Positions 2,856 through 58,042 of a stretch of 64,000 bases of DNA are shown here, in pieces. The position numbers and the translations under genes were made by a program. The notes below the pieces were generated by a model. The model ran no database searches, was not told where the DNA came from, and worked only from the letters and a program-made list of their open reading frames with translations. Location of the stretch: contig JBAQUL010000026.1 in the NCBI GenBank assembly GCA_049297495.1, positions 64,620-128,619 of the forward strand, read 5' to 3'. The DNA comes from Candidatus Moraniibacteriota bacterium. Its GTDB lineage: Bacteria > Patescibacteriota > Minisyncoccia > Moranbacterales > UBA2206. The stretch's first letter is position 1; every line of letters starts with the position of its first letter.

Positions 2856-2874
2856 CTTTAAAAATTTCAAAAAT

Positions 2875-4692: not shown

Positions 4693-4737
4693 GCAACAGC
4701 ACAAGGACTTGCGTCTAAGCCTAAAAATTAAAAAAAT

Positions 4738-7420: not shown

Positions 7421-7632
7421 TTTTTTATGTTTAATGCTTATATCTGCAGTATAGCATAAAATCAGGACTTGCGCGTTTGCCAAAAGCAAGCTTTTCCATA
7501 GCCAGAGTTAATCTGGGAAAAACCTTAATGGTTTTAGGGGTTAAAATAAGTAAAAACGAACTCTAAAAAACCACGCGCCTTAAAGATTGTTTTTGACAAA
7601 TGCGTAAGTCCTAAAATTGAGAAAACAAATCA

Positions 7633-10363: not shown

Positions 10364-10422
10364 TGAAAATCCTCCTCTCATCTCGGTTATTAATTTTTGC
10401 CAAACTTCAATCTTGCAAATAT

Positions 10423-10448
10423 AAAAAGAACAGCCTCCTTATTGGCTG
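10423..10448 (-). terminator. Weak intrinsic terminator after the giant gene
   Basis: A CAGCC/GGCTG 5-bp stem followed by TTCTTTTTATATTT on the minus strand. Confidence 0.3.
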
Positions 10449-10519
10449 CCCTCCGCTGCCAATGCTAACCAAACACTAACTGGAAATACTTGAAAAATCA
10501 AGTTTCCGCCAAAACATAA

Positions 10520-11160
10520 TTATTTATAGGGATTTATAACCAATGGCTGACTCCAATCAAACGAGGTCGTGTTTTTGGAAAGCTGGATTGAAACACCATC
10601 CCCAGGATTGACAGAGAAATCCGTTCCCATCCATTGATGGGTAAAAGTATCATAGTAGTAGGACAAGATGTTTTGCGTATCTGGTCGCCATCGAGTAATG
10701 GAAGATATCTTGGCATTGTTTCCATCACCTATCCCGCCCTCCATATCCCGAACCATATCGGACGCTTTTTGATATTTAGTAGTATAGGGAAGAGAGGTCC
10801 AGTTAATATTTGCCTTGGTGATATTCGTTGTAAATGTCTTGGCATTTTGCACGTCACTTCCAGCAATTGTCCAGTTAAAATTAGCTATATTTTTTGATAA
10901 CTGAACAGATATGCCGTCCCCGGGATTCACAGTGAAATCTGTTCCCATCCAATGATGGGTGAATGTATCATAGTAATAGGACAAAATATTTTGTGTATCT
11001 GGTCGCCAACGAGTGATTGAGGATACCTTGGCATTATTTCCATTACCAATCCCCCCTTCCATATCAGCTATTATGTCGGAAGCTTTCTGATATTTCGTAG
11101 CATATGGAAGCGAGGTCCAATTAATATTAGCTTTAGTTGTGTTCGTATTAAAATTCTTCT
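10520..11160 (-). repeat. Tandem duplication (about 321-bp period, about 88% identity) encoding two about 95-aa C-terminal repeats (ANINWTSLPY..KYQKASD..GGIGNGNNAK..RWRPDTQNILSYYYDTFTH.WMGTDF) of the giant protein
   Basis: The DNA repeat was seen directly by comparing 10620-10700 with 10940-11020, and the protein-level duplication by reading the repeats. Confidence 0.7.
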
Positions 11161-29700: not shown

Positions 29701-31957
29701 TCTCAGCTCCCCCTGCGCCTAATGCATTATTAATTCTCACACTATTTGTCGCGCCAGCTTGAATCGTTGTGCTAGCATTACCAACTTTTCCATTATCACT
29801 AGTAGCTGTCAGAGTATAAGTCCCAATAAGCCCCGTGTATTTTAATTTTCCAGCTAGATTTGCAGTTCCACCAACAAAATCACTAGAAAGATCCAGCACT
29901 GGTGTGCCGCTGTCCTGAACTGTCATAATTCCGCTGCCACTCACTGAAAATAGCACCCCTTGACCAACGGTCGATGCATCATAATCGATAACCACATTGC
30001 CATACACATCTTGAGCAGTCACATTAGCAGTGACAAAATAAGTATCATTGATTTGAGGAGAATTTATGCTCATTCCAAATTTAGCAAAAACACCAGGACC
30101 AAAACTAACTGCATCACTCAATGAATTTGCCGATCCACTAACTGCCCTAAATTGCCGACTGCCAGACAGCCCTCCATATTTTAACTTGCCAGATAAATCA
30201 CAAACACCATTTGTAAAATTACCGACTTGATTGAGGACATTATTATTTCCCGATCCCAGCCCACTTACTATTCCCGCCGCAACCGATTCGGTGATAGTCA
30301 CATTATGCACCGAAGCGTCAAAGTCAGTGACAACATTTCCGTCAGCGTCCTTGACCGTTAAAGTATCCACCCCTGAAAAAGCAGCGTCCATAACTTGAGG
30401 AGAAGTCAATGAGAAATCAAACGAAGCATAATCACCCGCCGAAATATTCACCACTCCGCTTGTTGTGGTTTTTGCATCAGCAGATGTGGCTGTAAAATTA
30501 TAGTTTCCGATAATTCCAGAAAAAATTAGTTTTGCTGTTAAGTTTGCAACACCATTAGAAAAATCGGCATCAAGATTGAGCTTATTCACGCCAGACAATC
30601 CACTGACAGCTCCATTGGCTGGAGCAACGGTGAACGTCACATTATTAGTCGCTGCCTGAAAATCAGTTTTAACGTTTCCAAATGCATCATAAGCAGTGAG
30701 CGTATTGGTTCCAGTAAAAGTTTTTCGATTCTGCTGAGTTGCTGCTAAGGTCAAATTTAAACTGCCAAAAACACCAGGACCAACTGCCACCACTTGAGTT
30801 CCGTCTGTAAGCGCGGGCGAAACTGGTGCAGTCTGGTGAGCGGTCATCATCCAGGTGGGAGAGGATATTTTTTCGTCATAATAGCAAAATTGAACCGATG
30901 AATTGCCAGTTGCCACAACAAATTCAGTAATTTCCGTACTAGTACAAACACCGCCAGAAACACTATAGAATTTCTTATTGACCCCACTAGAATCTGATGA
31001 AAGCGCCACAGTCGTATCAGCCTTCACCGCTTGAACATTTCCCGCCACGTCACGAGTTTCCACTGTGATTACTGCAGATTTATTGCCTGCCGCTATAGTT
31101 CTTTGCGGCGAAGAAAAAACTAAACGAGTTGGATCGCTTGAAGCATTTGCCACAGCTGACGACGGACCTTGCGCACTAGATTCAAAGTAGTTGGGCGTAT
31201 GCACTGTCCAAGTAAAAAGCACTGACAACTTATATGTATAACTATGACCAGATTGCACTGTCGTGTCCGCGTAAGTCACAGCTCCACCGGCATTTTGTGT
31301 CGCAAGTGCTGCTAATTTTTGATAAGCGCCACTATTATCACTACGATAAACCCCATAACCAGTTATCGTATTATGTGCCGTTCCACCTGCCGCGCCAGTA
31401 TCGTTATTCCAAAGACCAGTCCACTGCAAGTCTACTGCCGCAACTGTCGCGCTAGTAATTGAAGGAGTGGGAATCGGTTCCATCACAATAGCGGATAAGC
31501 CATAATGCAGACCAGAATTCCAAATATCATCTTGAGTAATCTGCCTTTGCCCAGAAGCTCCAACCCAAGAAACTTCAGACCAACCATTAAGCCCACTATA
31601 TGTTTCCGCCACAGTCACCGCCGTATCACCAACTGTAATCGAAGGCGACCAAGAAGAGCTTCCCACGTCCCAATTGAAATAAGCCGCTATTCCAGCGCCA
31701 TCAGCCGGATAAATCTGATCAATATCTGGAGTATCAGAACGAGAAAAATTATTATTAATATTTAAACGATAACCGGTCACAACCGCCTTGCTATTCGGAC
31801 TATTAGCGTCTCCCGTAAGAAGACTTCCGCCACTCCGATAGGGCACATAACCGCGCAAAGAAAAAATATCCCCCGCTTTGGCGGGAGTTGCCCAAAAAAT
31901 AATCGAGAAAATGCTTAAAAAGAAAAAAGTTTTTTTTATTTTATTTTCGTATTTCAT
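26705..31957 (-). CDS. Large secreted protein (about 1750 aa) with tandem bacterial Ig-like (Big) repeats
   Basis: Signal peptide (MKYENKIKKTFFFLSIFSIIFWATPAKA). Repeated about 100-aa units (GVSFSLTSITAQDQYGNVATGYSGDKTIVYSGP...). A C-terminal Ig-like domain. The ORF-track start at 31972 overlaps the upstream gene by 4 bp. The ATG at 31957 gives a canonical signal peptide. Confidence 0.8.
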   Translation of the reverse strand: MKYENKIKKTFFFLSIFSIIFWATPAKAGDIFSLRGYVPYRSGGSLLTGDANSPNSKAVVTGYRLNINNNFSRSDTPDIDQIYPADGAGIAAYFNWDVGSSSWSPSITVGDTAVTVAETYSGLNGWSEVSWVGASGQRQITQDDIWNSGLHYGLSAIVMEPIPTPSITSATVAAVDLQWTGLWNNDTGAAGGTAHNTITGYGVYRSDNSGAYQKLAALATQNAGGAVTYADTTVQSGHSYTYKLSVLFTWTVHTPNYFESSAQGPSSAVANASSDPTRLVFSSPQRTIAAGNKSAVITVETRDVAGNVQAVKADTTVALSSDSSGVNKKFYSVSGGVCTSTEITEFVVATGNSSVQFCYYDEKISSPTWMMTAHQTAPVSPALTDGTQVVAVGPGVFGSLNLTLAATQQNRKTFTGTNTLTAYDAFGNVKTDFQAATNNVTFTVAPANGAVSGLSGVNKLNLDADFSNGVANLTAKLIFSGIIGNYNFTATSADAKTTTSGVVNISAGDYASFDFSLTSPQVMDAAFSGVDTLTVKDADGNVVTDFDASVHNVTITESVAAGIVSGLGSGNNNVLNQVGNFTNGVCDLSGKLKYGGLSGSRQFRAVSGSANSLSDAVSFGPGVFAKFGMSINSPQINDTYFVTANVTAQDVYGNVVIDYDASTVGQGVLFSVSGSGIMTVQDSGTPVLDLSSDFVGGTANLAGKLKYTGLIGTYTLTATSDNGKVGNASTTIQAGATNSVRINNALGAGGAEISNVTINVDAPLNLWMAGYDVSGNFVNNATTGHWTVTGFDSGDSFAQIDVNNASTISFSPHMTPQSGVIHFDAGSGMTDVTGTITVEAGSARTFDVSAPATATTGVGFSNTQITAKDQYGNVALGYDGSKTLILTGPASGPESGAPTSSVTAIFTSGVASSIAPIVLVRAETVKITLTQGSISGQSGNVVVSAGTATHLHLVSPATVTAGVSFSLTSITAQDQYGNVATGYSGDKTIVYSGPSASALGDSPSYTTAVEFVNGVSTTALMTELFRTETATIHITEGAISGDSNDIAVQAGAAGSIEYYSGNNQIGIVNSNLANPLVVLVKDVYGNPKSGQAVTFAVTIGDGSMAPGSAVTDVDGRAQTVWRLGSMSGAGLNQGEARVAGLFGTPIVFYADGVPSVPTLLDVTAPSEVIAGVPFAITIKAIDAFGNVVTAYNGTKVVSYSGPHASPSGTAPVYSSSVDFSDGQNNAVSTTLYKAETVTLTVSSGGLSGDSLSIVVKPADTNQFNIMAPATAIVNLPFIIASLRALDLYGNVATDYSGSKTISYSGPDDSDSGTHPVYTAGVTFVGGVASTQLDTTLVKAEITQIIATDSTISGTSNNIVVSYAESFVLTYVSGNNQTGSPSTTLPQPLVAKVIDSSGNPASGKTVMFTPASGSGSVSPVSVIVGETGLASVSWTLGSSDSLETVTASVPGLASTVLYVTNAGGGGFTGTRLVFTTLTQEVAKNIASGTITVCLQNVEGNNVSADSNKAISLAANSATGKFATNFAGPWDKTSITISSGSSCANLYYQDSASGLMTITASSTEALSGLQSIYIKPDVVSASPAATSNSSSTVTENNTTNEGDHNITNKNVANNNYTIIINNFYYASPQSKQVDVNNQAATITVSGSSVPTILSPRDGSLVMDTDAGVTVSGTAMPHRTVVVSRRDGQEIGSTTSDKQGNWKMMIFGEKLGSSDNFLSAKVVGEDEKSAPVNFQVKDGSDLLKKLLRLFSSK

Positions 31958-31968
31958 GCAATAAGTTA

Positions 31969-33114
31969 TCATTTTTTCCGCCTCATCTTCCCCACAATCT
32001 TTTCCCGCATATCTTCCACCTTCAAAGCGGCTTCATTGACTTCTTTGGATACATTAATAAGCTCCTCTTCTACACCATCAATATCTTTTTCCAATCCCTC
32101 TTCGGATGAAATCTCATCAAAATTTTTCTGTTTCCTTTTTTTATTTATTTCCAGGCGATCTCGTTTAAGATTTTCCACCTTCCGCATTGACGCATTCACC
32201 TCTTTCGCCACATCAATCAGCTCCTTTTCAACGTCTAATGCTTCTGAATTCAAATCAATTAAACTCTGATTTGTTGACGATTCTTCTTGCGGCGCATCAA
32301 CCTCCTTATAATCAATGATTCTTAGTGTTTGCTCGTTACCCGAATTATCACCCTTGAAAGAATTTTGATCAGAATAAAGATTATTTTTTTCCGCTGCAAC
32401 CCTGAAGGAAATTCTTCTTTTTCTCAAAAAGAAGAAATAGCCAAGCGCTATTGAGATGCCTATACCAAAAACAATGCTGAACCATACACTGCTAATCAGA
32501 TACCAATGACTTGCACCGTCAGAATCGACTATTGTAAAAAACACCCGATTACTTTGTATTGTTCCTAATTTGGCATCAGCAAATGAAGCTGTTGCCGAAT
32601 ATTCTCCCGGCACAAACTGAAATTGAGGGATAAAAACCCATTCACCATTCTTATCCGCTGTTGCATTGCCATTGAGCCTTGAACTCGATTGATGCTGATA
32701 AAATTTTCTATTAATATCTTCATCAGTCACAACCACATCAACAATCACTCCGGGAGAAGTTTTCCCAGAAAATTTCACGCCCGTATTGACCACAGCCTCC
32801 CTGGAGCGAGGGAACTCAAAACTAATCACTGACTTATCATTGTCTTTTATATTGACTTTCTCCTCATTCAACGTTGGATCGATAATGGACGGAGCAGTTG
32901 AAGCAGCATTATCCTCAACCGTATATTCATTATTAGTAACATTAACTTTCCCTTCCGAATCATTTTCTATGGCACTTTCGATAATACTTTTAACATCTTG
33001 TGGTGTCGCATCAATTGCCAAAACAGTTTTGGAATAAAATAAAAATCCCATCACGAATAGGATAGAAAGCAAATAGCCCAAATTTAAAACAAAAAATTTA
33101 ATTTTATATTTCAT
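31969..33114 (-). CDS. Type I membrane protein: signal peptide, Ig-like ectodomain, TM helix, cytoplasmic coiled-coil with internal repeat
   Basis: N-terminal signal/TM segment (FFVLNLGYLLSILFVMGFLFY). A second TM (WYLISSVWFSIVFGIGISIALGYFFFL). The C-terminal repeat (IDVAKEVNASMRKVENLK and INVSKEVNEAALKVEDMR) occurs twice. Confidence 0.6.
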   Translation of the reverse strand: MKYKIKFFVLNLGYLLSILFVMGFLFYSKTVLAIDATPQDVKSIIESAIENDSEGKVNVTNNEYTVEDNAASTAPSIIDPTLNEEKVNIKDNDKSVISFEFPRSREAVVNTGVKFSGKTSPGVIVDVVVTDEDINRKFYQHQSSSRLNGNATADKNGEWVFIPQFQFVPGEYSATASFADAKLGTIQSNRVFFTIVDSDGASHWYLISSVWFSIVFGIGISIALGYFFFLRKRRISFRVAAEKNNLYSDQNSFKGDNSGNEQTLRIIDYKEVDAPQEESSTNQSLIDLNSEALDVEKELIDVAKEVNASMRKVENLKRDRLEINKKRKQKNFDEISSEEGLEKDIDGVEEELINVSKEVNEAALKVEDMREKIVGKMRRKK

Positions 33115-33279: not shown

Positions 33280-36200
33280 CTAAAATATAAGATACGAAAT
33301 TGTGCCAGTCTTGGTCCCAGTTTTCAAATCAACCGCATACCAATTATACCAACCAGCTATTTTACGAATTTTGTAATCTACCAAGAAATTTCCACTAGCG
33401 TCCGTTTTAACCTGAACTGGGGCATAGTAGCCACCCCAAGCACCAGAAAAATAGAGCGCAACATCACTATTGGGAGAAAATTTCTCTCCTGATTGATGCA
33501 TAATTTCTCCCTTATGCCCTCTTTTGGGCAGGTTGAAAATTGAATACGGCGCAGGTTCAAACGTAACCTCTTTTTTGTAGGTATCGGAAGTATTGCCATT
33601 TTTATCTTTAAATTTGAAAAAGAATTGTTGTTCATCCCTTTCTTTCTGGCTAATTTTGAGTTCAATATCTTTTTCCATCTTATTCCAGTCCGCTTTTTCA
33701 AAATGAGAAAAATGCGATACCTTGTAGCGCTTGATACCTGAGATATTTTTAAACTTCAAAGTCACTTCCTTTTTTGATGTTTTTTCATGCTTAACATCCT
33801 TCTCGCTAAAAACAAGCTTAAGATCATCAAAATAATCCTCAGTGTCAGGAGCTGGCGTGGGAGTCGGAGTAGGAGTTGGCGACGTTGATATATTCACACT
33901 CACCACATAAGCTTTCGTCGAATTATCTTGCGCGGTAACCGTATATGTGACAGGCAAAGTAAAATCTCGTGCCACGCCCGAAGCAGGACTGACAGACGCA
34001 CCGCTGTGAATAATTGTGGGAACCAGCGCAGTCACATCAGTGCCAAAGGGAACCGTAATTGTGATAGTCTGAGCACCATTGTCTATTGTGCCATGCACAG
34101 CCGGATTAAGATTATCAAACGAAAAACTTGTAATATCCTTACTCGTTGGAGAAGGTGCACTAGCCACTGTCACAGTTATGACATACACCTGTGTCGAAGC
34201 ATCAGCCGCCGTAACAGTGTAGTTGACCGGATTGGTAAAGTTTTGCGCCACACCACTCGCGGGACTGACGGATGTTCCAGTAATCGTGATTGTCGGAACC
34301 AGCACAGTCACATCAGTGCCAACTGGCATGGTAAGCGAAATAGTACGCGCACTCTCGCTGATTGAGGTTGCACCAACTTGACCAGGCACAGTAAAGGCAG
34401 TAATCGCTTTCAGCGATGAAGGATTAGGCGCAACCGTCACGGTCACAACATAAGCCTGGGTTGAAGCATCCGCAGCAGTCACGAGATATGTCAATGGATC
34501 CGTGAAATCATTTGGTGTTGTACCGCTAATTTGAACAATTCCATTCACTGAAACTGAAGTGCCTGTAGCAGTAAAAGAAGCAACTAAAGCAGTAGTTGCA
34601 GTGCCGTGAGGCATGGTTAGTGCAATTGTATGTGCACTTTGATTAATTGTAGTTGATCCGATTTGGCTAGGAATAGTAAAAGTGGTAATTGATTTAGTTG
34701 AACTAACCAAACCTTGATATTCAAAAGCTCCCATATCCACCTGACCAACAATTGATTCTCCATCATAATCAGTCGTAAAAAGACTGGTCGATTCTCCGAC
34801 ATTTATACATGGCGAACTTCCCCCTAGATGATAGTCGTGGTTACCTCTATTTTTAAACAAAGGGTCTCCTGTGACAGAATGCGACCCCTCAGTAACATTA
34901 ACAAAGTTGGTTCCGTTACTGTGAACAGCATTATAGTCATTATCGATTGGCGTACTGGTATCATTCCAAAGAATCGTGTTAACAATTCCGTAGGAAGCAT
35001 TAAAAGCCACGATATTATTTCTCAACTTAATATTCTCTCCACTTCCTGCCTTAGCGATACCAACCACATTGTCCGCAACAACATTGTTATAGATATTCAA
35101 ATCATGCGGAGAATCAAGCCCGGGAGGATGGCTTTCGCTTGGACTTTTGTCATAATACGCACTGATACCTTCCGTATTGCCATAAACGATATTCTGATAC
35201 ACATCGATATCATATACGCCTTGAGTAAAAGCAATACCGGTAGAATTTGCCCCGTAATCACTACCTAATGGACTAAAGTTATGGATATCATCATGTCCAT
35301 AGATCGTATTTCTCCGCGCAATGCAATCATGCGATACAGTTGACCCCGTTCCACCGCCCCAGTCAAAATACAGTCCATTCCCCTCCCAGCGCGTATTAGT
35401 ATGATTATTGTAAATCGTATTGTCCTCCACAACCAAACCAACACAACCAGCAATCCAAACTCCACCGATTGGCGCCTTATATGAATTATCATGGACGCGA
35501 GAATTTTTAATCACACTCTTTGTTTGCCCACTGTCATCAATGTTCCCAAAAGAAATTCCGCCACCATCAACTTCATAAATATCCAAATTATCAATCGTCA
35601 CGCTGTGCCCCGTAATTCGATAATCTTCCGACGTCAAAAGAATTCCAGCGTTAATCTGACCAGTTCCCTTTAAATTATAAATCGAGCCATCTTTGATTGT
35701 GATATTATATGGCTTCCCAGTCACACCGCCCACGCCCCAATAAAAACTTATTCCATGATAAAAAGCATAGAGCGGATTAAAATCATGCAAGTTAAAGTTT
35801 TTAATTTCAATATTATAAACATCACTTGACCCAGTGTTATACCAAAAAATTCCGGAATAGTTCATTCCCGATATATCAATATTGCTGATCGAAATATCAT
35901 GTGGCCCATTCCAAAGACCGACTCCGCCATAGCTATCCATCAAAGTCACATCGGACATGTCAATATGATGCGCCAGATCTGAAAGACCGATGCAATAGGC
36001 GTTATTCGCAGTAAAGTTTCGAAAAGTAAGAGCAGTGATATTTAAATAACTTTTTCCTCCCGCATATATCCCAAAATTTTGCGTCCCGCCGCCATCAAGG
36101 ATTGGATCGCTACCACTGCCATAAGCACCAAAACTAATCGGGTTACCAGCCGCGCCAGAATTGGGAACTGTCAAGGTCTCTCCATTCCAAACGCTACCTT

Positions 36201-36411
36201 TTTTAAAAAGAATATTATCGCCAGCCAAAAAATTGGACGTGTTAATCTTTTCAATTGTTTTCCAGGGTTGAGTAGAGTCTGTTCCGACATTAGCGTCATC
36301 TCCTAGGGAAGAATCAACATAATAATTGGCAGCAAAGGCATTTTTTCCAAACAGAAAACAACTCAGAAATGCCGCTAAGATAATTAATTTATTTAATCTT
36401 ATTTTAAACAT
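33280..36411 (-). CDS. Secreted right-handed parallel beta-helix (pectate-lyase-fold) protein with three about 90-aa C-terminal repeats and a PT-linker
   Basis: Signal peptide (MFKIRLNKLIILAAFLSCFLFGKNAFA). N-terminal motif (NYYVDSSLGDDANVGTDSTQPWKTIEKIN). Many beta-helix rungs (NxxxG/NIxIxNN). Three repeats (TAFTVPGQVGATSISESARTISLTMPVGTDVT...). A PTPTPTPTPAPD linker. Confidence 0.75.
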   Translation of the reverse strand: MFKIRLNKLIILAAFLSCFLFGKNAFAANYYVDSSLGDDANVGTDSTQPWKTIEKINTSNFLAGDNILFKKGSVWNGETLTVPNSGAAGNPISFGAYGSGSDPILDGGGTQNFGIYAGGKSYLNITALTFRNFTANNAYCIGLSDLAHHIDMSDVTLMDSYGGVGLWNGPHDISISNIDISGMNYSGIFWYNTGSSDVYNIEIKNFNLHDFNPLYAFYHGISFYWGVGGVTGKPYNITIKDGSIYNLKGTGQINAGILLTSEDYRITGHSVTIDNLDIYEVDGGGISFGNIDDSGQTKSVIKNSRVHDNSYKAPIGGVWIAGCVGLVVEDNTIYNNHTNTRWEGNGLYFDWGGGTGSTVSHDCIARRNTIYGHDDIHNFSPLGSDYGANSTGIAFTQGVYDIDVYQNIVYGNTEGISAYYDKSPSESHPPGLDSPHDLNIYNNVVADNVVGIAKAGSGENIKLRNNIVAFNASYGIVNTILWNDTSTPIDNDYNAVHSNGTNFVNVTEGSHSVTGDPLFKNRGNHDYHLGGSSPCINVGESTSLFTTDYDGESIVGQVDMGAFEYQGLVSSTKSITTFTIPSQIGSTTINQSAHTIALTMPHGTATTALVASFTATGTSVSVNGIVQISGTTPNDFTDPLTYLVTAADASTQAYVVTVTVAPNPSSLKAITAFTVPGQVGATSISESARTISLTMPVGTDVTVLVPTITITGTSVSPASGVAQNFTNPVNYTVTAADASTQVYVITVTVASAPSPTSKDITSFSFDNLNPAVHGTIDNGAQTITITVPFGTDVTALVPTIIHSGASVSPASGVARDFTLPVTYTVTAQDNSTKAYVVSVNISTSPTPTPTPTPAPDTEDYFDDLKLVFSEKDVKHEKTSKKEVTLKFKNISGIKRYKVSHFSHFEKADWNKMEKDIELKISQKERDEQQFFFKFKDKNGNTSDTYKKEVTFEPAPYSIFNLPKRGHKGEIMHQSGEKFSPNSDVALYFSGAWGGYYAPVQVKTDASGNFLVDYKIRKIAGWYNWYAVDLKTGTKTGTISYLIF

Positions 36412-36574
36412 ACCAATATTCCCCTTATTTGAGCTATTTACTGCGCCGCTAAATGAAGTCAGCGACCAAAAAGCATAGCACAACTGCGAAATTTGTCAAG
36501 GGCGAAAGGCACATAAAAAGGCCCTTGAAATGAATAATTCCAAGGACCTCACTTTTCCAATACGTAACGGCACA

Positions 36575-37259: not shown

Positions 37260-37706
37260 TTAGAGACGAATCATCCGCCACGTTTGATTGGCCTGATCTG
37301 TGTGGTGCCATATCACAATAGGTGCATGATAGTCTTTCCGCCACGAGCCGACATCGATGGCCAAGTGCATGTTAACTTTCGATATAAGGTGCACGCCATC
37401 TATTGTTTTTGACCGTCGGATTTTCCAAAGCTGGTTATCTCCCAAATGACGGCCAAACTGATACACAGTTCCACTGGGCCTACCGCAAGTAGAATCATCC
37501 AACACCTTAAAAGATTTCTTATTAACTATCTCATAGAAACCGCCCTCCCTCGGCACGAACATCCAATCCTGATGACTCGCATCGGGGTGCATCTTTTCTA
37601 TGCACACACGGGAACGATCCTCATGCCGACCATGAGCAACAGCTAAAACAATATTGCTGTCGCAATGCATCGGAGACAACTTGAAATACTGTACTAGTCT
37701 AGTCAT
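37260..37706 (-). CDS. Ricin-B (beta-trefoil) lectin single-domain protein
   Basis: QxW repeats (DNQLWKI, ANQTWRM). Length about 148 aa. GC content is locally higher than the flanks. Confidence 0.55.
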   Translation of the reverse strand: MTRLVQYFKLSPMHCDSNIVLAVAHGRHEDRSRVCIEKMHPDASHQDWMFVPREGGFYEIVNKKSFKVLDDSTCGRPSGTVYQFGRHLGDNQLWKIRRSKTIDGVHLISKVNMHLAIDVGSWRKDYHAPIVIWHHTDQANQTWRMIRL

Positions 37707-38465: not shown

Positions 38466-38509
38466 AAAAAAATCAAAAACACCCATAACAATCCCAGCTA
38501 TGGCTCATT

Positions 38510-41500
38510 CTATTCAAAATTCTCATAACTCGAAAAGTTCCTATTTTCAATAAGTTTTTCTAGATTTGAAATATTTTTTATAGAAATACTGTTACCAACA
38601 AATGCATAGTCATCCTTTTTGAATCCAACAAAAAATAGCATTTTTGAAAATATTTGTTCAACACTTTTGCGAACCCTCTCTTTTGTGCTTTCTGGCATAC
38701 TAGCTCTCAAGTTCTGATTAAGATACTGGTTGTAATAGAAAGCAATTTCTCTCTCTAAATTTTCTTTCGTCAGCTTCAAATGATTGGGGATTTCTTCAGA
38801 CAACACTTTCTTTGTCCAATCAGTATTACGAAGGCTTGATTCAAAATCTTTTCCTCCAAATTTATTATAAGCGTTCGCCATTCCAATTTGATTATATAGG
38901 GCAAAAATATATCGCCTTGGATCATCAATGGCATTTTTCACTAAATCCCTTTTTAGCTCGAATTGTCCGGCACTATTTTTCATTTCCGTCCGCATTCTCT
39001 TGGCAAGATCAACCTCCTCAGCCATCCCAACCCTCGCATTAAACCCTCCCACCTTGGCGTATAGCTCCGCAGAAAAAGACCCGAGTCCTATATTTGATTT
39101 TCCTCTGGTCCACAATCTATTCAAGCCACTTTGCATCACATATAAAACATGCAGCATTGGAAGTTTTTTGATAACTTCCAGAGGAAGTCTTGATTCGCTC
39201 TTATAAACTGCAACCTTTGGATCCTGAAATCTTTCAATGACAGTCGATAAAAACTGCGAGTTTTTATCCATTGCGTCAGCCCCGCCGGTTCTCATAATTA
39301 ATCGGCTTTTATTTTCAACATTATTCCTTTCCATATTCCGATGCAAAGCCAAATCAGCCATCAGCTTATAAATCTGACCCATAATAGGCCTATCTCCAAA
39401 ATTAAAAGTTTTCCTGACCATATTTACATGATATTCAGGATGTTCTTTTTTAAATCTCTCCACTTCTTGTATTGTTTTATCGTCAAAAGGAATACCATCA
39501 TTCCTCCTGTTAATCAAAACGTTTATCTCAAACAGCTCCGGATTTAACTTTTCACCCTGCTCGTCTTTCTGTTTGACAGAATATTCTTTCAATGTTTGGT
39601 AAATATTTTTTTCCCTATATGCTGGCAAATTTATCGACATTCTACATCCCTCTGACATGGGAGTGGACTGTTTCGCCAACTCAGCCAATTCCCGTCTATC
39701 TTTGCCATACACTCTATCAAGATAATCCTCTTGCATTTTCAGACTATTTCGCTCTCGTTCTTCTGGATTATCAACATATACTCCGTTGCTTTCCGGATGA
39801 GGTTTTTCGCCATAAGGAAGCTCTCTGTACGGATCTTCGCCATATGGATCACTGCCATATGGATCAGAAACGAATGGTCTCTCGAGATAATAACCAGCTC
39901 CGAGCTTTGCATCTTTTTCCATCGGCCTCCGCCCCGCCATCGGAATAACAAATGGCCAATCAACTTCGTAGTCAGATGGGATCATAAATTTTGTGGAATG
40001 CTCAGCCACCTGGAGGAACGTGCTTGTTTTGTCCACAGCCGGGATGTCGATAACATCACGGATTGGTCCAAGACCATCCCCGGTGTGAGTGGCAAGGATG
40101 CCCATTTGCTCGACGCCGTTTTTCATGCCCAACGATTGCGCCACTTCCGCAAATTTTCCTTTGAACACCGCATGTCCCTTGGCGTCCATTCCAAATAACA
40201 ATTTTCCATTCTCACTGTTTGGATCAATGCTGATATGCCCCTGCGCATCAATCGGCACTTCAATTACATTGTTTTGCGTACCACGCGTCAATGAGAATAA
40301 CATTTTCATTTTTCCCTCACCCATCAGCTTTTGCGCATCAGCGGAAAGACCACTATGAAAAGAGCCATCTTTTGTCATATGCGAAATATCCATCACAAAT
40401 TTCCCACTCTTATCAATCCCCGTTCCATGCACCCCACCCCAGCGTAATTTCAATTCATTATGATCAAATTTTGGTTTCGGCGTATCATTGTCATACCAAA
40501 GCCGACTGATCCGATGAAATTTGTCGGTATGCTTTGCGACATATTCTTTTGGATCGAAAATATATTCTTGATGCTTGGCATCAGAGATGTGCTCCGTAAC
40601 ATTTCCCCAACTCACGCCTCTTTGTGTCAGGGCGTCTTTCGCTTCTTGTGAAAGCGAACCATCTGAATTGAGTTTCAAATTTTCAATGGAAATATTACCA
40701 CCCGGCCCTTTTGGTCCAATCAAGTCATATGTTCCAGCGGGATTTTTTACAAAACTAAATCCTTGTGGTAAGTTGTAATTTGAATTACCAATAATCCTTT
40801 GATCCAAAATTCCCTTGCCAGGAATACCAATCGGCACGGCGTCAGCGGTAATCCCCTGACCCTGCAACAAACGCAGGCTCTCGTCGGTCAACGTTCCATC
40901 CGGTTTCAATTTTAGCCCGGAAAGCATCATATCTTGCCCGCGCATCAAATTCAGTCCTGTTGGACCGTTTTGCAGCGCAAATCCTTTTGGCAAACTAAAA
41001 TGATTCTGTCCAACAATTGTTTCTGCATATGGGCCGCCATAATTTTGATGCAGCTCGCCCGTAAACATTCGTCGCACATATTCCAAAGATGTATAACGTG
41101 GCACCGGAGTTGGCTCAGGAAGACCGGAAGGCACATCCGCCGCATGAGCAGAATTTGGAGTGAAAACTCCTTCAGAGCCATTCCAAATTGTCGCCACTTC
41201 TTGCACTGCCATTCCAACGCCGACCCCAATTGCAACTCCTTTCACAACCGCTTTCGCCACTTTCAACCGCTTCATTTTATTGAAAGCTTTATCTTTTTGC
41301 TCTTTTTCTTTCGAAAATTTATCCTCAAACTCAATCTCTTTTGCCAAAAACAGGTAATCTTTGAACCCGGCCTCATCCTCAAAAGGTAGATTAATCTCAA
41401 CTTTACCGGCTTTTTTTTCGGCCAAAAGTTTCCTTACATAAACCTTTGCTTCCGCTCTCAGTCTGTCAAGTTGCGTTCTCTCTTTTTCGATTGATTTCAC

Positions 41501-42694
41501 ATCGCTATAATGAATGAGATCAATATTTGAACGATCAGAAAAAGTAATCCGACCTTCCACCTCATTGAGCCTCGCGAGTAACAGATCAAAACTTGCTTTT
41601 TGTGGGTCAGCTTTTAGTCTTTCCAAACTCGTTTCCAAATCGTGCGCTAATCCAGACGCACTTTTGGTTTCATATTGAAATTGTTCCATCTCCGCCCGTC
41701 TTTCCGCGCCTTTTTCAAATGTTTTTCCCCGCGCCCGCTCCCGAGCATGCTGAGCTCTTTCTTCTTTCAGGCGCTTATTTTCCCTCGCCCCAGCTACCGC
41801 GCCACCGATACCGGCGCTAATACCAAAGCCAAGCGGCCCTAATATTTTTGAAGCGGCGCGAGCACCACCCAATGCCACTTTTGTGCCAAGTGCATACACA
41901 GCTGAAACAGCGGCAGCAACCGTCGCCTCATTAGCAATGCTACCGATAAATTTTATTTTTTGAATCTTCTCAATCCAACGATCAACCCGATTAAACTGCG
42001 CTTCGGTCCGCTCTCCTGAGCGCGCCCGGCCAACAACAATGTCAAAATCAGTATCCAGCTCTTCGAGCTTCGCTCCATGTTCGATTGATTGACGCAATTG
42101 CTTAGCAATCTCCAAAAGATTATCTGCATACATCTTACCTTTCCGAGCAATTGCCTCTCCAGATTCGCCCTTTATCTCTTGCAACTCCTGACTGAATACC
42201 GCGTTTTTTTCCAAAACAAACTGCTCATCAGATAAGTTCCCCTTCGCATAATCCTGAACCAGTCCTTGGATGCGTTTTTTCAATTCCCCTCCTTCTTGCG
42301 AATCACTGCTAATCGTTTTTTTCTCCTCTCCTTCATGAATCATTTCTTCCTCATACTCACTTGCAAAGCGCTCCATTACCGATCCCATTGCCAAGTCGTG
42401 TGCTTCTTTTCCTAATCTTTCGTTTACATACACATTGCCACTCTCTTCAATTTTCTTTCTGGCAATAAATACTTCTTTCTGTCGAAAATATTCATGAAAT
42501 AAATTATGCTTCCAAACCCTCGTCAAAAGACCCTTGAAACCACGCAGGCTTTCCTTATTTTCCGTCATCTTCGCCTCCGCCGCCGTGAACGCCTCCCGCT
42601 CCAACGCGTCGGAAGTATCCACGATTGTAACTTTAATTTTTTTTGGAGCATTCTCCTGGCCATAAGGAGCCGGTACGTTTTCATTGTAGGGCAT
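38510..42694 (-). CDS. Large multidomain protein (1394 aa): N-terminal coiled-coil, two Gly-zipper hydrophobic segments, repeated LPxGF..LKLxxDGxL modules, (DPYG)n repeats, C-terminal possible GT-A glycosyltransferase-like domain
   Basis: Hydrophobic Gly-rich helices (AAVSAVYALGTKVALGGARAASKILGPLGFGISAGIGGAVAGA and AVVKGVAIGVGVGMAVQEVATIW). Repeats (LPKGFALQNGPTGLNLMRGQDMMLSGLKLKPDGTLTDESL and LPQGFSFVKNPAGTYDLIGP...NLKLNSDGSLSQEA). The repeat stretch SDPYGSDPYGEDPYRELPYGEKP. The C-terminal SINLPAYREKNIYQTLKEY resembles the GT2 N-terminal motif (tentative). Confidence 0.6.
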   Translation of the reverse strand: MPYNENVPAPYGQENAPKKIKVTIVDTSDALEREAFTAAEAKMTENKESLRGFKGLLTRVWKHNLFHEYFRQKEVFIARKKIEESGNVYVNERLGKEAHDLAMGSVMERFASEYEEEMIHEGEEKKTISSDSQEGGELKKRIQGLVQDYAKGNLSDEQFVLEKNAVFSQELQEIKGESGEAIARKGKMYADNLLEIAKQLRQSIEHGAKLEELDTDFDIVVGRARSGERTEAQFNRVDRWIEKIQKIKFIGSIANEATVAAAVSAVYALGTKVALGGARAASKILGPLGFGISAGIGGAVAGARENKRLKEERAQHARERARGKTFEKGAERRAEMEQFQYETKSASGLAHDLETSLERLKADPQKASFDLLLARLNEVEGRITFSDRSNIDLIHYSDVKSIEKERTQLDRLRAEAKVYVRKLLAEKKAGKVEINLPFEDEAGFKDYLFLAKEIEFEDKFSKEKEQKDKAFNKMKRLKVAKAVVKGVAIGVGVGMAVQEVATIWNGSEGVFTPNSAHAADVPSGLPEPTPVPRYTSLEYVRRMFTGELHQNYGGPYAETIVGQNHFSLPKGFALQNGPTGLNLMRGQDMMLSGLKLKPDGTLTDESLRLLQGQGITADAVPIGIPGKGILDQRIIGNSNYNLPQGFSFVKNPAGTYDLIGPKGPGGNISIENLKLNSDGSLSQEAKDALTQRGVSWGNVTEHISDAKHQEYIFDPKEYVAKHTDKFHRISRLWYDNDTPKPKFDHNELKLRWGGVHGTGIDKSGKFVMDISHMTKDGSFHSGLSADAQKLMGEGKMKMLFSLTRGTQNNVIEVPIDAQGHISIDPNSENGKLLFGMDAKGHAVFKGKFAEVAQSLGMKNGVEQMGILATHTGDGLGPIRDVIDIPAVDKTSTFLQVAEHSTKFMIPSDYEVDWPFVIPMAGRRPMEKDAKLGAGYYLERPFVSDPYGSDPYGEDPYRELPYGEKPHPESNGVYVDNPEERERNSLKMQEDYLDRVYGKDRRELAELAKQSTPMSEGCRMSINLPAYREKNIYQTLKEYSVKQKDEQGEKLNPELFEINVLINRRNDGIPFDDKTIQEVERFKKEHPEYHVNMVRKTFNFGDRPIMGQIYKLMADLALHRNMERNNVENKSRLIMRTGGADAMDKNSQFLSTVIERFQDPKVAVYKSESRLPLEVIKKLPMLHVLYVMQSGLNRLWTRGKSNIGLGSFSAELYAKVGGFNARVGMAEEVDLAKRMRTEMKNSAGQFELKRDLVKNAIDDPRRYIFALYNQIGMANAYNKFGGKDFESSLRNTDWTKKVLSEEIPNHLKLTKENLEREIAFYYNQYLNQNLRASMPESTKERVRKSVEQIFSKMLFFVGFKKDDYAFVGNSISIKNISNLEKLIENRNFSSYENFE

Positions 42695-42720
42695 ATGTTT
42701 TCATTTCAAAACTAATTTAA

Positions 42721-43032
42721 TTATTCCCCAGTACCTAAATAGGTATTACGAAAAGCTAAAAGTTCTCCAGCGATTAGCTGGTCCATGTTCCCAATCTTTT
42801 CATGGCAATATGTTGAAATAGCCTCAGGATCACCAGCGTCCAATAGCGCATCAAATTCATCCGCATTTTCCTCCGGTAAATTATTCAGAATCACAGCATT
42901 AATCCTGTCCTCCACTCGCAAATAAAGATCTTCCTGAATTTGACTTAAAACTTCCGGCAAAAGATTCTCAAATTTTTTCTCCGCAACCAGCTGAGAAACA
43001 AACTGCTCAATCGCATCGCTTTTATTTTCCAT
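42721..43032 (-). CDS. Small acidic hypothetical protein (103 aa) immediately upstream of the 1394-aa gene
   Basis: The ORF ends 27 bp before the large gene start. A TATAAT -10 lies upstream on the minus strand (plus coordinates about 43088-43093). Confidence 0.45.
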   Translation of the reverse strand: MENKSDAIEQFVSQLVAEKKFENLLPEVLSQIQEDLYLRVEDRINAVILNNLPEENADEFDALLDAGDPEAISTYCHEKIGNMDQLIAGELLAFRNTYLGTGE

Positions 43033-43249
43033 ATTTGTTTTTTTTAAGTTTGCTAATTATTAAAAAGTCTCTCTTAACTATTGCGATAATTATACTCCAT
43101 TTCACAACTAGATGCAAAATATAATTAGTTCATTTGTACGGCTTACGCGTTTGCCAAAAATTTAATCATTTTCTGGAAATAAAAAAACAACCAGTGACCC
43201 GTCCCTCCTTTCGTTGGGGTCACTGGTTGTAAAGTTCAAGTTATTGATA

Positions 43250-44350
43250 TCAGGAATTCGCTTGCGACAATAAGCATTTTTCGCGATATGCGGAAAATAG
43301 CGTATCCCGCTTGAAAATTACCCGCACATCAGAAACATATTGACGGATATTTTCTATCCCACCCTCCTGACGGTCCACGAGGATAACAACGCATACAACA
43401 TCCAATCCGTCGGCCCTCGCTCTTTCAATCGCCTTTATAGTTGAACCTCCGGTCGTTGCCACATCGTCAATGACGCATGCCCTATCACCGGGATGAATAT
43501 CTCCCTCAACCCACTTAATAATACCATGCGCTTTCTGGTCCTTGCGAATTGAAAAAGAGTTTATCGGTTTTCGCTTCAATTGGGATGTGTAGGAGACGCT
43601 GTTTGCAATTGGGTCAGCACCAAATGTTAGACCCCCCACCGCAACCAAATCTTCTACATCAGCAATTGCATCAAAAATCAAATTTCCCGCTAAAAACATT
43701 CCTCGAGAACCAAGGGTTGCAGGCTTACAATTGCAATAAAAGTTACTCATAGCACCACTGACCAGCTTGAAGATTGGTTCTTCTGAATACTTAAATGATT
43801 TTTCGAGAAGTATTTCCAGGAATTCCTTTTTAAAACCAAATAGGGATTGTTCGACGATTTCCCTGAGATCCTTTCTTGCTCCCATGTCCAGTTCGCCATA
43901 ATCCTTCTCCAGTCTCATTGAAACCTGCTCCAACTTCGGATAGAGCTCGTAAAAATACTTCGAGACTTCCAGCAGTCTTTGCAAGTATCCATGATAATTA
44001 AATCCTGAAAAATCATCTTTTCTGACAATTCTTTTTTCATATTGCAAAGCTTCTTGGATCCAACCCCCAAATTTTCCCTCCTCCCACAGGGGGCGTTCAT
44101 CCCTCATTTTTCCTGGATGAAACCGAAACTCAAGTTTCTCATCATGTTGTCCATATTTTGCAATAATAACAATATCTGCCGGATCGACATATAAACGAGC
44201 TGTACCGCTATAAACCTCCGGGGTTATTTTTTGTCCTTCATCCGAAAGAATTCCAGCCATCAACGATAGATACCCCACAAGTTCGTCTGATGGAATGGCT
44301 CCTTCTATCGATTTGCCGAGTAAAAGTTCTTTAAAGCCATCCTTTTTCAT
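43250..44350 (-). CDS. pyrE: Orotate phosphoribosyltransferase-like protein with about 180-aa N-terminal extension of unknown function
   Basis: The C-terminal half aligns to OPRTase (FKLVSGAMSNFYCNCK, PRPP-binding ACVIDDVATTGGSTIKA, VVCVVILVDRQEGG). The N-terminal 180 aa has no recognisable domain. Confidence 0.65.
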   Translation of the reverse strand: MKKDGFKELLLGKSIEGAIPSDELVGYLSLMAGILSDEGQKITPEVYSGTARLYVDPADIVIIAKYGQHDEKLEFRFHPGKMRDERPLWEEGKFGGWIQEALQYEKRIVRKDDFSGFNYHGYLQRLLEVSKYFYELYPKLEQVSMRLEKDYGELDMGARKDLREIVEQSLFGFKKEFLEILLEKSFKYSEEPIFKLVSGAMSNFYCNCKPATLGSRGMFLAGNLIFDAIADVEDLVAVGGLTFGADPIANSVSYTSQLKRKPINSFSIRKDQKAHGIIKWVEGDIHPGDRACVIDDVATTGGSTIKAIERARADGLDVVCVVILVDRQEGGIENIRQYVSDVRVIFKRDTLFSAYREKCLLSQANS

Positions 44351-44400
44351 CTCTACATCTTTCCTTTCGCCCCAACTTTTCAGTCGAGGCTACACAGCCA

Positions 44401-45591
44401 TTAAAAGGGATACCGAATTCCGGCGTCGATAACCTGAGGCAAATTAAACGCCTCTTCCTCGAGAGCGCGATGCTCGCCGATGGCGCGATCAAGATCTGCT
44501 TCCAGGTTGTTAACGTCACCGCTCCCACCATATTCCGTTTTCCAGGGAAAAAGGTTATTACGCGAACTGCTCCAGATGCCGCCTGTCCCGTTGAGCTTTT
44601 TGTCATCATCTCGTCTGAGCTCCAGGATAACTTTCTTGTACGGAATCAGAGGATCTTTTGCGAGTTTTTCTTTGCTCTGAGCGCCAAAACCCGGGTTTAC
44701 ACTCGTGTGTGTCGGAAACATTTTCCGAATCGATCCGTCGCAGAAGTTGGTAGCACCCACAACCAAGCCCAGATGAGAAACGCCGCCTTCTTCGAGACCA
44801 TGTTTTTCGGACAGATCCCTGGCATCCATGGCATTTTTCAAGTATAGTGCCATTTCTACGTTTCCTTCTGTCTTCACGAGTAAATCCTGATACTGCTTGC
44901 CGGAAGGATTGCTGGTTTTATTTACATACACCAGACCCTTGCCTTCGCGCAGGAGATTGAGACCGATCATGGATTTTTTGGTACCATCTTTTCCCACATC
45001 TTCCAGACACATCGCATCCTCGCCCATCCATGGGCTCGGGTTGGTCACATCGAAATTGAACGGGGAATGGTTAATACCCCAGGACTTCAAGAGATTTCCG
45101 AGATAGCCCAGAAAATATCCGCCCTGAGTGAGAGAAACGTCTCCCGGTTTTGCATCGATAATCGCGATCAGTCGCCGCCCGACATCTTCCGACAGAGTTT
45201 CAATCTTTCTTCGGAGCCGCTGCAACAAAAACATGCCCGCCGGACCGAATTGAATGTAAAGCCCAAACTGTGGCTTAAATACACCCAGATTACACTTCAG
45301 GACAGATAGTTCGAGGACATAGAATAAATAGTCCTCAATCGCAGCCAGGAGGCCGGCGTATTTGGAACGCTCCGCGCCTATCAGACCTTCCAGGGAAACG
45401 ACTCTCTCATAGAATCCATAGGACTCTGTGCCTGCAGCGATTTGACCACCATTGCGAAAACCATAAATTGCCATGTTGGCCGCCCAGGTGTTTTGAGCAA
45501 GATCTTTTTGCGGATGAATATCAAATCCCCCGCAATAAAGTGTTTTGCTCGCTTTTTGCACATCAACCAAATCAAGAAATGCGTGATTCAT
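44401..45591 (-). CDS. pyrF: Orotidine-5'-phosphate decarboxylase, type 2 (long form with extensions)
   Basis: VFKPQFGLY, IIDAKPGDVSLT (the DxKxGD catalytic motif of type-2 ODCase), and DVTNPSPWMGEDAM. The AGGAG ribosome-binding site is 7 nt before ATG 45591. At about 396 aa it is longer than typical type-2 PyrF. Confidence 0.7.
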   Translation of the reverse strand: MNHAFLDLVDVQKASKTLYCGGFDIHPQKDLAQNTWAANMAIYGFRNGGQIAAGTESYGFYERVVSLEGLIGAERSKYAGLLAAIEDYLFYVLELSVLKCNLGVFKPQFGLYIQFGPAGMFLLQRLRRKIETLSEDVGRRLIAIIDAKPGDVSLTQGGYFLGYLGNLLKSWGINHSPFNFDVTNPSPWMGEDAMCLEDVGKDGTKKSMIGLNLLREGKGLVYVNKTSNPSGKQYQDLLVKTEGNVEMALYLKNAMDARDLSEKHGLEEGGVSHLGLVVGATNFCDGSIRKMFPTHTSVNPGFGAQSKEKLAKDPLIPYKKVILELRRDDDKKLNGTGGIWSSSRNNLFPWKTEYGGSGDVNNLEADLDRAIGEHRALEEEAFNLPQVIDAGIRYPF

Positions 45592-45841
45592 CAGACTTCT
45601 CCTTTCCAACTAGAGGTTAGTGAAAACTTATTACATGACATATCAACAACTGCAAAAGCAGTATTGTTTTTTCAATTGGAAACGAACTAAGAAAAAATCC
45701 CCAAAAGGGACCTTTTCTTTCTAAAAACGAACTACTACCAAATTAGCCTTAATTGAGTGATTAGTCAAATGGCTGCGAAAAGCGAAAAAAGACGACCAAG
45801 CACCCTTTTTTCTTGCAAAAAATAGCACCACAATCCCAATC

Positions 45842-56074: not shown

Positions 56075-56644
56075 CTATTTGGCTAGCTTTTCAATGCTCC
56101 GCACAACATCCGGCAATTCCATGCAAGATTCCTCGCCCTCTATTGCGCCAGAAAAATGCTTAGCGTCATGCTTCACAATAATTTCCGCTCCTAGCTTTTC
56201 TCTGAAAATATCTGCGAATTTCAAATTCACATAGGGATCATCATCAGAATGAATTGCCACAAATCCATTTTTTGATTTGGTTTTAATTTTCGCAAGATCA
56301 AATGGGGTTTCAAAAAAATTCTGAATTTCATCATAACCGATACTCTCATTGTACCCAGCTACTAAAACCACACCTCCGACCTTTTGCTTTTCAGTCAAAG
56401 TTTCCAGATATCGCATAATCGTGGCGCAACCGATGCTGTGGCCAATGAGATATAAGTCTCCATCTGGCTCGCCAATCACTTCCTGAAGTTTCGGCACCCA
56501 CCTATCCATCCTTGGCAGTTCCGTTTCCGGAAAAGCCGGTACTTTGACCTGGAAACCTTTCGCCTCCAGTTCTTTTTTAACCCAAGGGTACCAACAATAA
56601 GCTGGATAGCCTTCCCAACAATGAACAATAATTGCTCGTTTCAT
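56075..56644 (-). CDS. YdeN/RBBP9-type alpha/beta serine hydrolase (paralog 1)
   Basis: About 189 aa. Nucleophile elbow (LIGHSIGCAT). N-terminus (MKRAIIVHCWEGYP). It is a paralog of 60719-61261. Confidence 0.6.
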   Translation of the reverse strand: MKRAIIVHCWEGYPAYCWYPWVKKELEAKGFQVKVPAFPETELPRMDRWVPKLQEVIGEPDGDLYLIGHSIGCATIMRYLETLTEKQKVGGVVLVAGYNESIGYDEIQNFFETPFDLAKIKTKSKNGFVAIHSDDDPYVNLKFADIFREKLGAEIIVKHDAKHFSGAIEGEESCMELPDVVRSIEKLAK

Positions 56645-56660
56645 AATAAGTTACCAATTG
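56604..56660. repeat. 57-bp segment (5' end and upstream leader of the YdeN hydrolase gene) duplicated at 57986-58042
   Basis: 54 of 57 positions are identical between the two copies. Confidence 0.75.
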
Positions 56661-57985: not shown

Positions 57986-58042
57986 GGATAGCCTCCCCAA
58001 CAATGGACAATAATTGCTCGTTTCATAATAAATTACCAATTT
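57986..58042. repeat. Duplicated 5' fragment of the YdeN hydrolase gene (ATG + 12 codons + upstream leader) located upstream of the SDR gene. Encodes a 22-codon remnant (MKRAIIVHCWGGYPQMPKRFVL*)
   Basis: It aligns to 56604-56660. It is followed by GTGCTATAAT (an extended -10), then the SDR start. Confidence 0.7.

Follow-up and report, generated by a model that had tools for sequence, protein, structure and literature searches.

The question raised by positions 38,510 to 43,032 of a 64,000-nucleotide stretch of a Candidatus Moraniibacteriota contig (the whole stretch is referred to here as the window) is which part of the very large protein encoded there defines it, and what the other parts may do. 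According to the listing of open reading frames (ORFs), the locus consists of two ORFs on the minus strand, one of 1394 aa (38510..42694; hereafter the query) and one of 103 aa (42721..43032), which are separated by 26 nt. An earlier note made from the sequence alone had described a multidomain membrane protein preceded by a small acidic protein and had considered it as a possible polysaccharide or cell-envelope synthesis machine. Both ORFs are real with exact coordinates, and the small protein is strongly acidic (22 Asp and Glu residues versus 7 Lys and Arg; pI 4.1). The exact 1394-aa protein has already been deposited at NCBI on a 129-kb contig of a metagenome-assembled genome (MAG), and a copy of the 103-aa protein with 100% identity is recorded there under the name "DUF5663 domain-containing protein". 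Comparison with relatives showed that the large protein is made of a conserved core of 926 residues and a C-terminal head that differs between otherwise closely similar alleles.

The C-terminal head is an exchangeable module with a shared breakpoint at residue 926. The family member P0001 shares 92% identity with the query in the core (residues 1-930) and 23% in the head, which is also of the type of glycosyltransferase family 2 (GT2), and P0002 is 87% identical over the core and carries a head of glycosyltransferase family 9 (GT9; PF01075). In their protein sequences these three alleles agree through VDWPFVIPMAGRRP(M/L)E, ending at residue 926, and are unrelated beyond it; the junction motif GRRP(M/L)E occupies residues 921-926 (window 39917-39934). 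The same breakpoint was seen in the DNA, where the match to locus L002, the closest relative, covers window positions 43230..39918 (89%) and the match to locus L003 covers 43033..39923 (84%), both ending abruptly at about 39920. Core and tail discordance is recurrent in the family, with many pairs of 70-92% core identity and 0-35% tail identity. Since synteny with L003 returns only at about 36981, the variable island includes, besides the head, a gene for a 148-aa ricin-B-type lectin without an obvious signal peptide (37260-37706, minus strand; PF14200, E 2.7e-13); at L003 the island holds the GT9 head and a polysaccharide deacetylase. The lectin gene was considered as a co-varying or immunity-like partner and rejected, as it adjoins no other family member.

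A census of 198 family members assigned 123 heads to the GT-A (GT2-like) type, ten of which carry an appended Hanks kinase, 16 to GT9, 22 to an unknown "type 2", seven to a "type 3" and one to a kinase only, with the remaining 29 being short or other. A metallophosphatase like the phosphoprotein phosphatases (PPP), recognised by GDxxDRG and GNHD motifs, is fused in P0009, P0022 and P0063 and encoded by a separate downstream gene at locus L001. Because the head can also be a GT9 enzyme, a kinase or a phosphatase, the conserved "machine" is therefore the 926-residue core with its DUF5663 partner and not the glycosyltransferase. Within the window neither orphan head cassettes nor paralogues were found. 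At L001 the gene after the family member (10398-11858, plus strand) encodes a 486-aa protein with calcineurin-like/PPP phosphatase motifs (GDILGDRG, GNHD and GHS) and has a Pkinase gene beside it. At locus L018 the GT-A head is encoded by a separate ORF of 396 aa (5218-6405, plus strand) about 220 nt past the end of the core match, which could represent a natural gene split, a frameshift or an assembly error.

The second conserved component is the 103-aa acidic protein, which is a bona fide member of Pfam DUF5663 (PF18908; E 2.5e-8, 34.8 bits versus a gathering cutoff of 23.7), a family without a described function. Its gene lies directly upstream on the same strand in nine of nine annotated loci from Parcubacteria, Saccharimonadia and Daviesbacteria, at which the other neighbours are unrelated housekeeping genes. 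When reference genomes were searched with a hidden Markov model (HMM) of the partner, a DUF5663 gene was found to adjoin the large gene in all 46 testable loci, namely those with sufficient upstream sequence, being upstream in 45 and downstream in one (L028). The pairing with the scaffold gene is effectively obligate, which bears out across the Candidate Phyla Radiation (CPR) a conserved pairing that the earlier note had proposed to look for in related genomes. Since neighbour clustering gave no recurrent gene besides DUF5663, the module was taken to comprise two genes. At L028, the sole reversal of the order, the DUF5663 gene is immediately downstream at 4360-4668 (plus strand), with none within 559 nt upstream. 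Searches of the PDB with the sequence and profile of the DUF5663 protein gave no match, and a literature search for DUF5663, PF18908 and related terms found no mention in the library that was searched; the obligate pairing appears to be unreported. The partners differ in charge, with a pI of 4.1 for the acidic protein and of 9.2 for the basic helical region at residues 304-478 of the large protein.

The first homology search returned 72 proteins, and all named sources among them belonged to CPR/Patescibacteria, with Moraniibacteria, Parcubacteria, Uhrbacteria, Spechtbacterales, Saccharimonadia and Daviesbacteria represented. An exhaustive HMMER search using residues 1-930 of sequences clustered at 50% identity hit 1037 cluster representatives at E<=1e-3, of which 577 also reach E<=1e-30, so that 1037 such clusters are the minimum size of the family. 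The 50 loci found in GTDB species representatives were from Patescibacteria MAGs, except for one record titled Bdellovibrionales. No relative was found on viral contigs, and a phage origin was rejected on these grounds. A comparison of the Saccharimonadia member with cultivated Saccharibacteria returned six MAG proteins only and was uninformative owing to a limit of the word-index search.

The core was divided into regions using an AlphaFold2 (AF2) model of residues 1-930 (mean predicted local distance difference test, pLDDT, 76.7), sequence conservation and hydropathy; all coordinates that follow are on the minus strand. The model begins with a conserved alpha/beta domain at residues of about 20-245 (41960..42637) that contains many invariant polar residues and has no Pfam or PDB match, followed by long helices. 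The N-terminus is thus not simply the charged coiled coil described in the earlier note, as the alpha/beta domain comes first. Residues 249-303 (41786..41950) form two hydrophobic helices rich in Gly, Ala and Ser (seg1, 257-275; seg2, 284-303; pLDDT below 50), which could be a hairpin or a membrane-peripheral element. No part of the family is more conserved than the highly charged, basic long-helix region at residues 304-478 (41261..41785), with its motif RExKRxKEERAQHxRExAKGK. This region leads into a glycine-zipper helix (seg3, residues 479-504; 41183..41260; G486, G490 and G494), which is the end of a continuous helix at 441-505 and in which K485 is conserved and Q498-E499 invariant. Two copies of a beta repeat with the pattern LPxGF...LKLxxDG, which had been recognised from the sequence as repeats of about 60 aa, were located by pairwise comparison at residues 561-619 (40838..41014) and 635-698 (40601..40792), with a mutual identity of 28% and a pairwise E of 3e-9; across the family 151 members have one copy and 11 have two. 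The core ends with a conserved beta-rich domain at residues 715-926 (39917..40552; WYDNDTPxPxFDKNELxLxWGG...), which has high pLDDT and many invariant residues and gave no PDB, viral or Pfam match. Conservation spans residues of about 1-550 and 700-927 in essentially all members.

Scans of the whole protein and of individual members gave no match of the core in Pfam, NCBIfam, PADLOC or PHROGs, and nothing was found in Pfam scans of the N-terminal and beta regions of 38 members each. GvpG recurred in 10 of 38 members, each time below threshold, and was rejected as probably an effect of charged-helix composition. Sequence and profile searches of the PDB were likewise negative for the core, and Foldseek searches with the 1-930 model gave no hit, the lowest E being 0.53 in the PDB and 0.02 (at a probability of 0.10) in BFVD. 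The core has no detectable structural or sequence relative, and core and DUF5663 together are without a known counterpart; the combination that had looked novel in the sequence indeed has no described relative.

Whether the core is embedded in the membrane was examined through its hydrophobic segments. The Gly/Ala-rich hydrophobic stretches of the earlier note are present, in the number of three (seg1, seg2 and seg3) and not two. Their Kyte-Doolittle hydropathy (KD) is 1.45-1.8 and their insertion energy (dG), a crude sum using the Hessa scale, is +4.4 to +6, with seg1 and seg2 at KD of about 1.5 and dG of +4.4 to +5.1, compared to KD of 2.2-3.1 and dG of -4 to -1 for single-anchor transmembrane (TM) helices encoded in the same window. 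Hydrophobic beta-stretches in the soluble giant proteins encoded downstream in the window (see below) score about like the query segments. Among the 72 homologs seg2 has 20 charge-free columns and seg1 only about 14. The N-terminal extensions of relatives are hydrophilic and without signal peptides, so the N-terminus is placed in the cytoplasm, and the head and N-terminal regions contain 31-44% Lys, Arg, Asp and Glu (KRDE), a cytoplasm-like composition, versus 12-15% in the surface giants of the window. With such values the call of a membrane protein is not established for the 1394-aa protein; seg3 is possibly a weak anchor with the N-terminus inside and the C-terminus outside (N-in/C-out).

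The head of this allele begins behind a low-complexity linker at residues 944-962 (39809..39865, minus strand; DPYG, DPYG, DPYR, LPYG; pLDDT below 50) that marks the start of the variable part. This run, noticed already in the sequence, is unique to this allele among the 198 members. The head proper, residues 976-1394 (38513..39769, minus strand), was assigned to the GT-A (GT2-like) fold by an AF2 model, Foldseek, HMM comparison and motifs. The model of residues 930-1394, built with 36 homologues, has a pLDDT of 80.6 and a predicted template-modelling score (pTM) of 0.82 and is confident from about residue 975. Against the PDB, Foldseek matched it to GT-A glycosyltransferases at a probability of 1.0, with PcManGT (6yv7) as the best match (E 1e-7), followed by Chlorella virus hyaluronan synthase, BcsA, mannosylglycerate synthase, GpgS and also chitin synthase. 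Essentially all of the 31 PDB matches at E<=1e-3 are GT-A glycosyltransferases, at modest TM-scores (0.3-0.5) and identities of 8-15%. The GT2-like start that had been read from the sequence is INLPAYREKN (residues 1021-1030), and the GT-A fold that the earlier note had suggested looking for was recovered. In sequence searches the query head had no Pfam glycosyltransferase match, an NCBIfam EpsD match at 14.9 bits only, and GT2 matches in PDB sequence and profile searches that all remained below threshold. Its relatives P0032 and P0042 pass the gathering score of PF13641 (Glyco_tranf_2_3), and an HMM built from the GT-A heads of the family recovers the query at E 9.5e-53.

The active-site motifs distinguish the query from most of its relatives. 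Both the DxD motif and the catalytic Asp are kept in 111 of the 123 GT-A heads (pattern N-D-A-D, G-x-N, (E)D, RR), so that most heads appear to be under selection as enzymes. The query reads G-G-A-D, G-L-G, E-E and RR instead, with G1137, G1138, G1205 and E1227 at positions occupied by N, D, N and D in 102-117 of the 123 heads, and the DxD motif expected from the earlier note is therefore absent in its regular form. At the DxD position (G1138-A-D1140) the second Asp alone is kept, the first being present in 115 of the 123 heads, and E1227 replaces an Asp found in 115 of 123, the assignment as catalytic base being made by motif position. This rare GGAD/EE subtype was found in three of the 123 heads, namely the query, P0134 and P0190.

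Such substitutions would agree with a pseudo-enzyme, in which the GT-A head of this allele would no longer transfer sugars and would instead bind nucleotide-sugars or glycans, or play a regulatory or structural part, on the conserved scaffold; that the query scores below every Pfam GT2 threshold and that its head shares just 23% identity with the relative whose core is 92% identical point in the same direction. P0134 and P0190, however, share only about 38% head identity and 32-37% core identity with the query and keep the same substitutions as well as RR and the second DxD Asp, which argues for purifying selection on an active-site variant. The exchange of Asp for Glu is moreover conservative, and metal-independent or single-Asp GT-A enzymes exist. 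A pseudo-enzyme is considered quite unlikely. Because the variant positions are kept in P0134 and P0190 at this distance, the query head is a conserved and maintained subtype and not a decaying domain. It probably still binds a nucleotide-sugar, but with an altered metal or base chemistry.

The polysaccharide synthesis machine proposed in the earlier note would, in its strongest form, be a processive polysaccharide synthase and exporter whose glycine-zipper helices oligomerise into a polymer channel. Hyaluronan, cellulose and chitin synthases are indeed among the Foldseek matches, glycine zippers are common in channel-forming helices, and a polysaccharide deacetylase follows the gene at L003. 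The TM-scores of these synthases are nevertheless just 0.3-0.4 and soluble GT-A enzymes match about equally. Unlike in processive GT2 synthases (BcsA, hyaluronan synthase, chitin synthase), the family has no QxxRW motif, with T..RRA at that position, and no hydrophobic segment after residue 504 and hence no multi-pass TM channel beside the glycosyltransferase domain. A head that can be replaced by GT9, a kinase or a phosphatase is also incompatible with a dedicated synthase core, and this explanation, for which no processive-synthase sign was found, is highly improbable.

We tentatively favour, at slightly less than an even chance, a module consisting of a scaffold at the membrane face, DUF5663 and an exchangeable modifying head. 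The scaffold consists of the cytoplasmic alpha/beta domain, the basic long helices flanked by glycine-zipper hydrophobic helices, one or two beta repeats and the beta domain; probably bound by DUF5663, it would sit at the cell membrane or on its cytoplasmic face and provide localisation and substrate recognition. The acidic helical DUF5663 protein would be the first component of the module, and the head, joined after GRRP(M/L)E, would act in the cytoplasm of the cell itself. In most members the donor would be a nucleotide-sugar, whose sugar a Mn/Mg-dependent GT2 domain would pass to a protein or to an acceptor bound to the envelope, and recombination at the junction would swap the head, and with it the modification, thereby creating surface diversity between strains. 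Consistent with a cytoplasmic site of action, all identified heads (GT2, GT9, Hanks kinase and PPP-like phosphatase) need cytoplasmic cofactors, and the Hanks kinase is fused after the GT2 domain without an intervening hydrophobic segment.

Several observations weigh against this proposal. Residues 505-714, comprising the linker and the repeats, are Pro-rich and surface-like in composition (17.6% KRDE and 38% Ser, Thr, Asn, Gln and Gly), and family-wide the 25 aa preceding seg3 contain 27.8% Lys and Arg, with the following 40 aa being net acidic; under the positive-inside rule, a TM helix at seg3 would put everything past residue 504 outside the cell. The extreme Cys depletion (0.08% in cores and 0.33% in GT-A heads versus 0.96% in neighbouring genes across the 198 members; one Cys in the 1394 residues of the query) is often seen in secreted proteins, though it is even across all protein regions and for that reason does not discriminate between topologies. 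The analysis turned up neither an acceptor nor a pathway partner nor a glycan gene conserved as a neighbour, the query head may be inactive, lacking the first DxD Asp, two near-invariant Asn and the catalytic Asp, and the role of a core of no known fold is one that we purely infer.

The charge asymmetry around seg3, the Pro-rich linker with the surface-like composition behind it and the Cys depletion would agree with a surface-anchored, contact-dependent effector, in which seg3 would be an N-in/C-out anchor, the beta regions an external stalk, and the head would be delivered into the host cell on which the CPR epibiont lives, possibly after cleavage at GRRPxE, to modify targets there with the nucleotide-sugars or ATP of that host. 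The swapping of heads would then reflect an arms race with hosts, and the variable C-terminal module with its sharp conserved junction and the different heads in close strains agree with it. A repertoire of GT-A enzymes, kinases and PPP-like phosphatases is reminiscent of what intracellular pathogens use as effectors, the CPR lineages to which the family is limited are regarded as episymbionts, and a target in another species would explain the missing immunity gene. Seg3, with its conserved Lys and invariant Glu, is on the other hand far less hydrophobic than genuine single anchors of this organism, and library and fold searches detected no known secretion, translocation or pre-toxin domain. 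Neither orphan head cassettes (in the window) nor a co-varying downstream gene accompany the family, which is moreover not found on viral contigs, and as 62% of the heads are of one GT2 type with conserved chemistry they look more housekeeping-like than a diversified arsenal would. We consider such an effector, the main rival, unlikely and retain the cytoplasmic modifying module as the leading explanation.

The two genes are best explained as a self-contained operon flanked by regulatory-looking elements. A terminator-like hairpin read off the sequence (43180..43230, minus strand; stem 43230-43187, T-run 43186-43180) lies 20 nt beyond the stop of the preceding pyrE-like gene and bounds the two-gene unit on its 5' side; the DNA homology to L002 begins at 43230, the same point. 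Another terminator-like hairpin (38483..38503, minus strand) directly follows the stop codon of the 1394-aa gene. The TATAAT promoter of the earlier note was found as part of a sigma-70-like candidate (TTTGCA-18 nt-TATAAT; 43089..43118, minus strand; 10 of 12 consensus positions); the match itself stands, and it is weak evidence given that the number of promoter-like sites in the region is not above that in shuffled sequence. The upstream motif described there, TTTTGGCAAACGCG, is present at 43146-43159 (minus strand) with one other exact copy at 7472-7485 (minus strand); with up to two mismatches there are five matches versus 0.8 expected, two of them exact, and the copies may be a shared regulatory site. 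The second copy lies near the 5' end of the ORF at 7007-7489, and a diverged inverted copy is at 7591-7604 (plus strand), about 110 nt away from it.

Upstream of the unit, at 43250-45609 (minus strand), are unusually long pyrE-like (366 aa) and pyrF-like (402 aa) genes. The phosphoribosyltransferase match of the pyrE-like protein is confined to residues of about 190-340, and the pyrF-like protein has a weak orotidine monophosphate (OMP) decarboxylase match (TIGR02127, 67.7 bits versus a cutoff of 110.6). DNA homology to L002 is broken over 45588-43230, where L002 encodes a 300-aa OMP decarboxylase and a 226-aa protein, and the stretch looks like a second variable segment adjoining the module. 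Nucleotide-biosynthesis genes are abundant in the window for a CPR genome (50929-52692 on the minus strand, and 1267-6174) and include those for IMPDH, GMP synthase, an amidohydrolase, an AIR-synthase-related protein and a 587-aa protein in which dihydroorotate dehydrogenase is fused to a DHOD-B electron-transfer-like domain. Downstream of the module are three giant ORFs on the minus strand (10520-25843, 5107 aa; 26705-31972, 1755 aa; 33280-36483, 1067 aa) with many internal repeats (families D1-D16), 12-15% charged residues and about 40% Ser, Thr, Asn, Gln and Gly, which are probably adhesin or S-layer-like surface proteins; that of 1067 aa is syntenic with a Beta_helix/DUF5018 protein of L003. 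A 56-nt direct repeat (family D19, 95% identical) occurs at 56604-56659 and 57986-58041, each copy lying at the start of a minus-strand ORF or close to it.

Much of bacterial diversity belongs to the CPR/Patescibacteria, yet their envelope assembly and their dealings with hosts are mostly obscure. The family described here has until now been annotated merely as hypothetical, and through it DUF5663 gains a genomic context. The type of head offers a concrete handle on strain-level diversification of surfaces or effectors in CPR. Overall we see in the module a GT2 enzyme placed in a modular architecture that is lineage-wide and unprecedented.

Compared with characterised glycosyltransferases, the best structural match of the head is to PcManGT, a membrane-associated, non-processive GT2 enzyme of the PcManGT/DPMS type, with nearly all 345 target residues aligned and sub-threshold sequence agreement at the motif of the first beta-strand; the family consensus shares the DxD, the acidic "ED" and the basic RR. 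TM-scores are, however, just 0.36-0.46 at 14% identity, TM helices after the glycosyltransferase domain are missing here, the domain forms the end of an unrelated scaffold of 926 aa, GGAD/EE stands in place of DxD/ED, and no link to a GT-C partner was found. The soluble GT-A enzymes mannosylglycerate synthase (2y4j) and GpgS (4dec), stand-alone cytoplasmic enzymes for the synthesis of compatible solutes, align over about the full length including the helical C-terminal part (E 6.5e-5 to 8e-4), and the query head is likewise predicted to be soluble; identities are 9-15% and no match is seen at the sequence level. The locus also differs from three-component glycosylation of the Gtr type (GT2, flippase and GT-C), and a Gtr-like pathway with a neighbouring gene for a protein mannosyltransferase (PMT) or GT-C enzyme was rejected, as PMT-like genes occur at just three of 60 loci.

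A further comparison is with polymorphic toxins (CdiA-CT, Rhs, LXG), in which a conserved N-terminal region is followed by a short junction motif and unrelated C-terminal modules. In contrast to these, the heads here are transferases, kinases and phosphatases and not nucleases or pore-formers, with one type dominating, no immunity gene co-varies with the head, no orphan cassettes were found in the window, and no trafficking, repeat or pre-toxin domain was recognisable in the core with Pfam, NCBIfam, PADLOC and PHROGs. It is possible, though doubtful, that DUF5663 and the core constitute a new CPR-wide surface or host-interface apparatus of novel fold that presents or delivers interchangeable enzyme heads (GT2, GT9, kinase, phosphatase) for the modification of proteins or glycans; if so, these lineages would have their own counterpart of polymorphic effector systems, fitted to an episymbiotic lifestyle. 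The likeness to polymorphic toxins lies in the variable C-terminal domain behind a conserved junction in near-identical alleles and in the small helical protein encoded just upstream, which recalls the Lap partners of LXG toxins.

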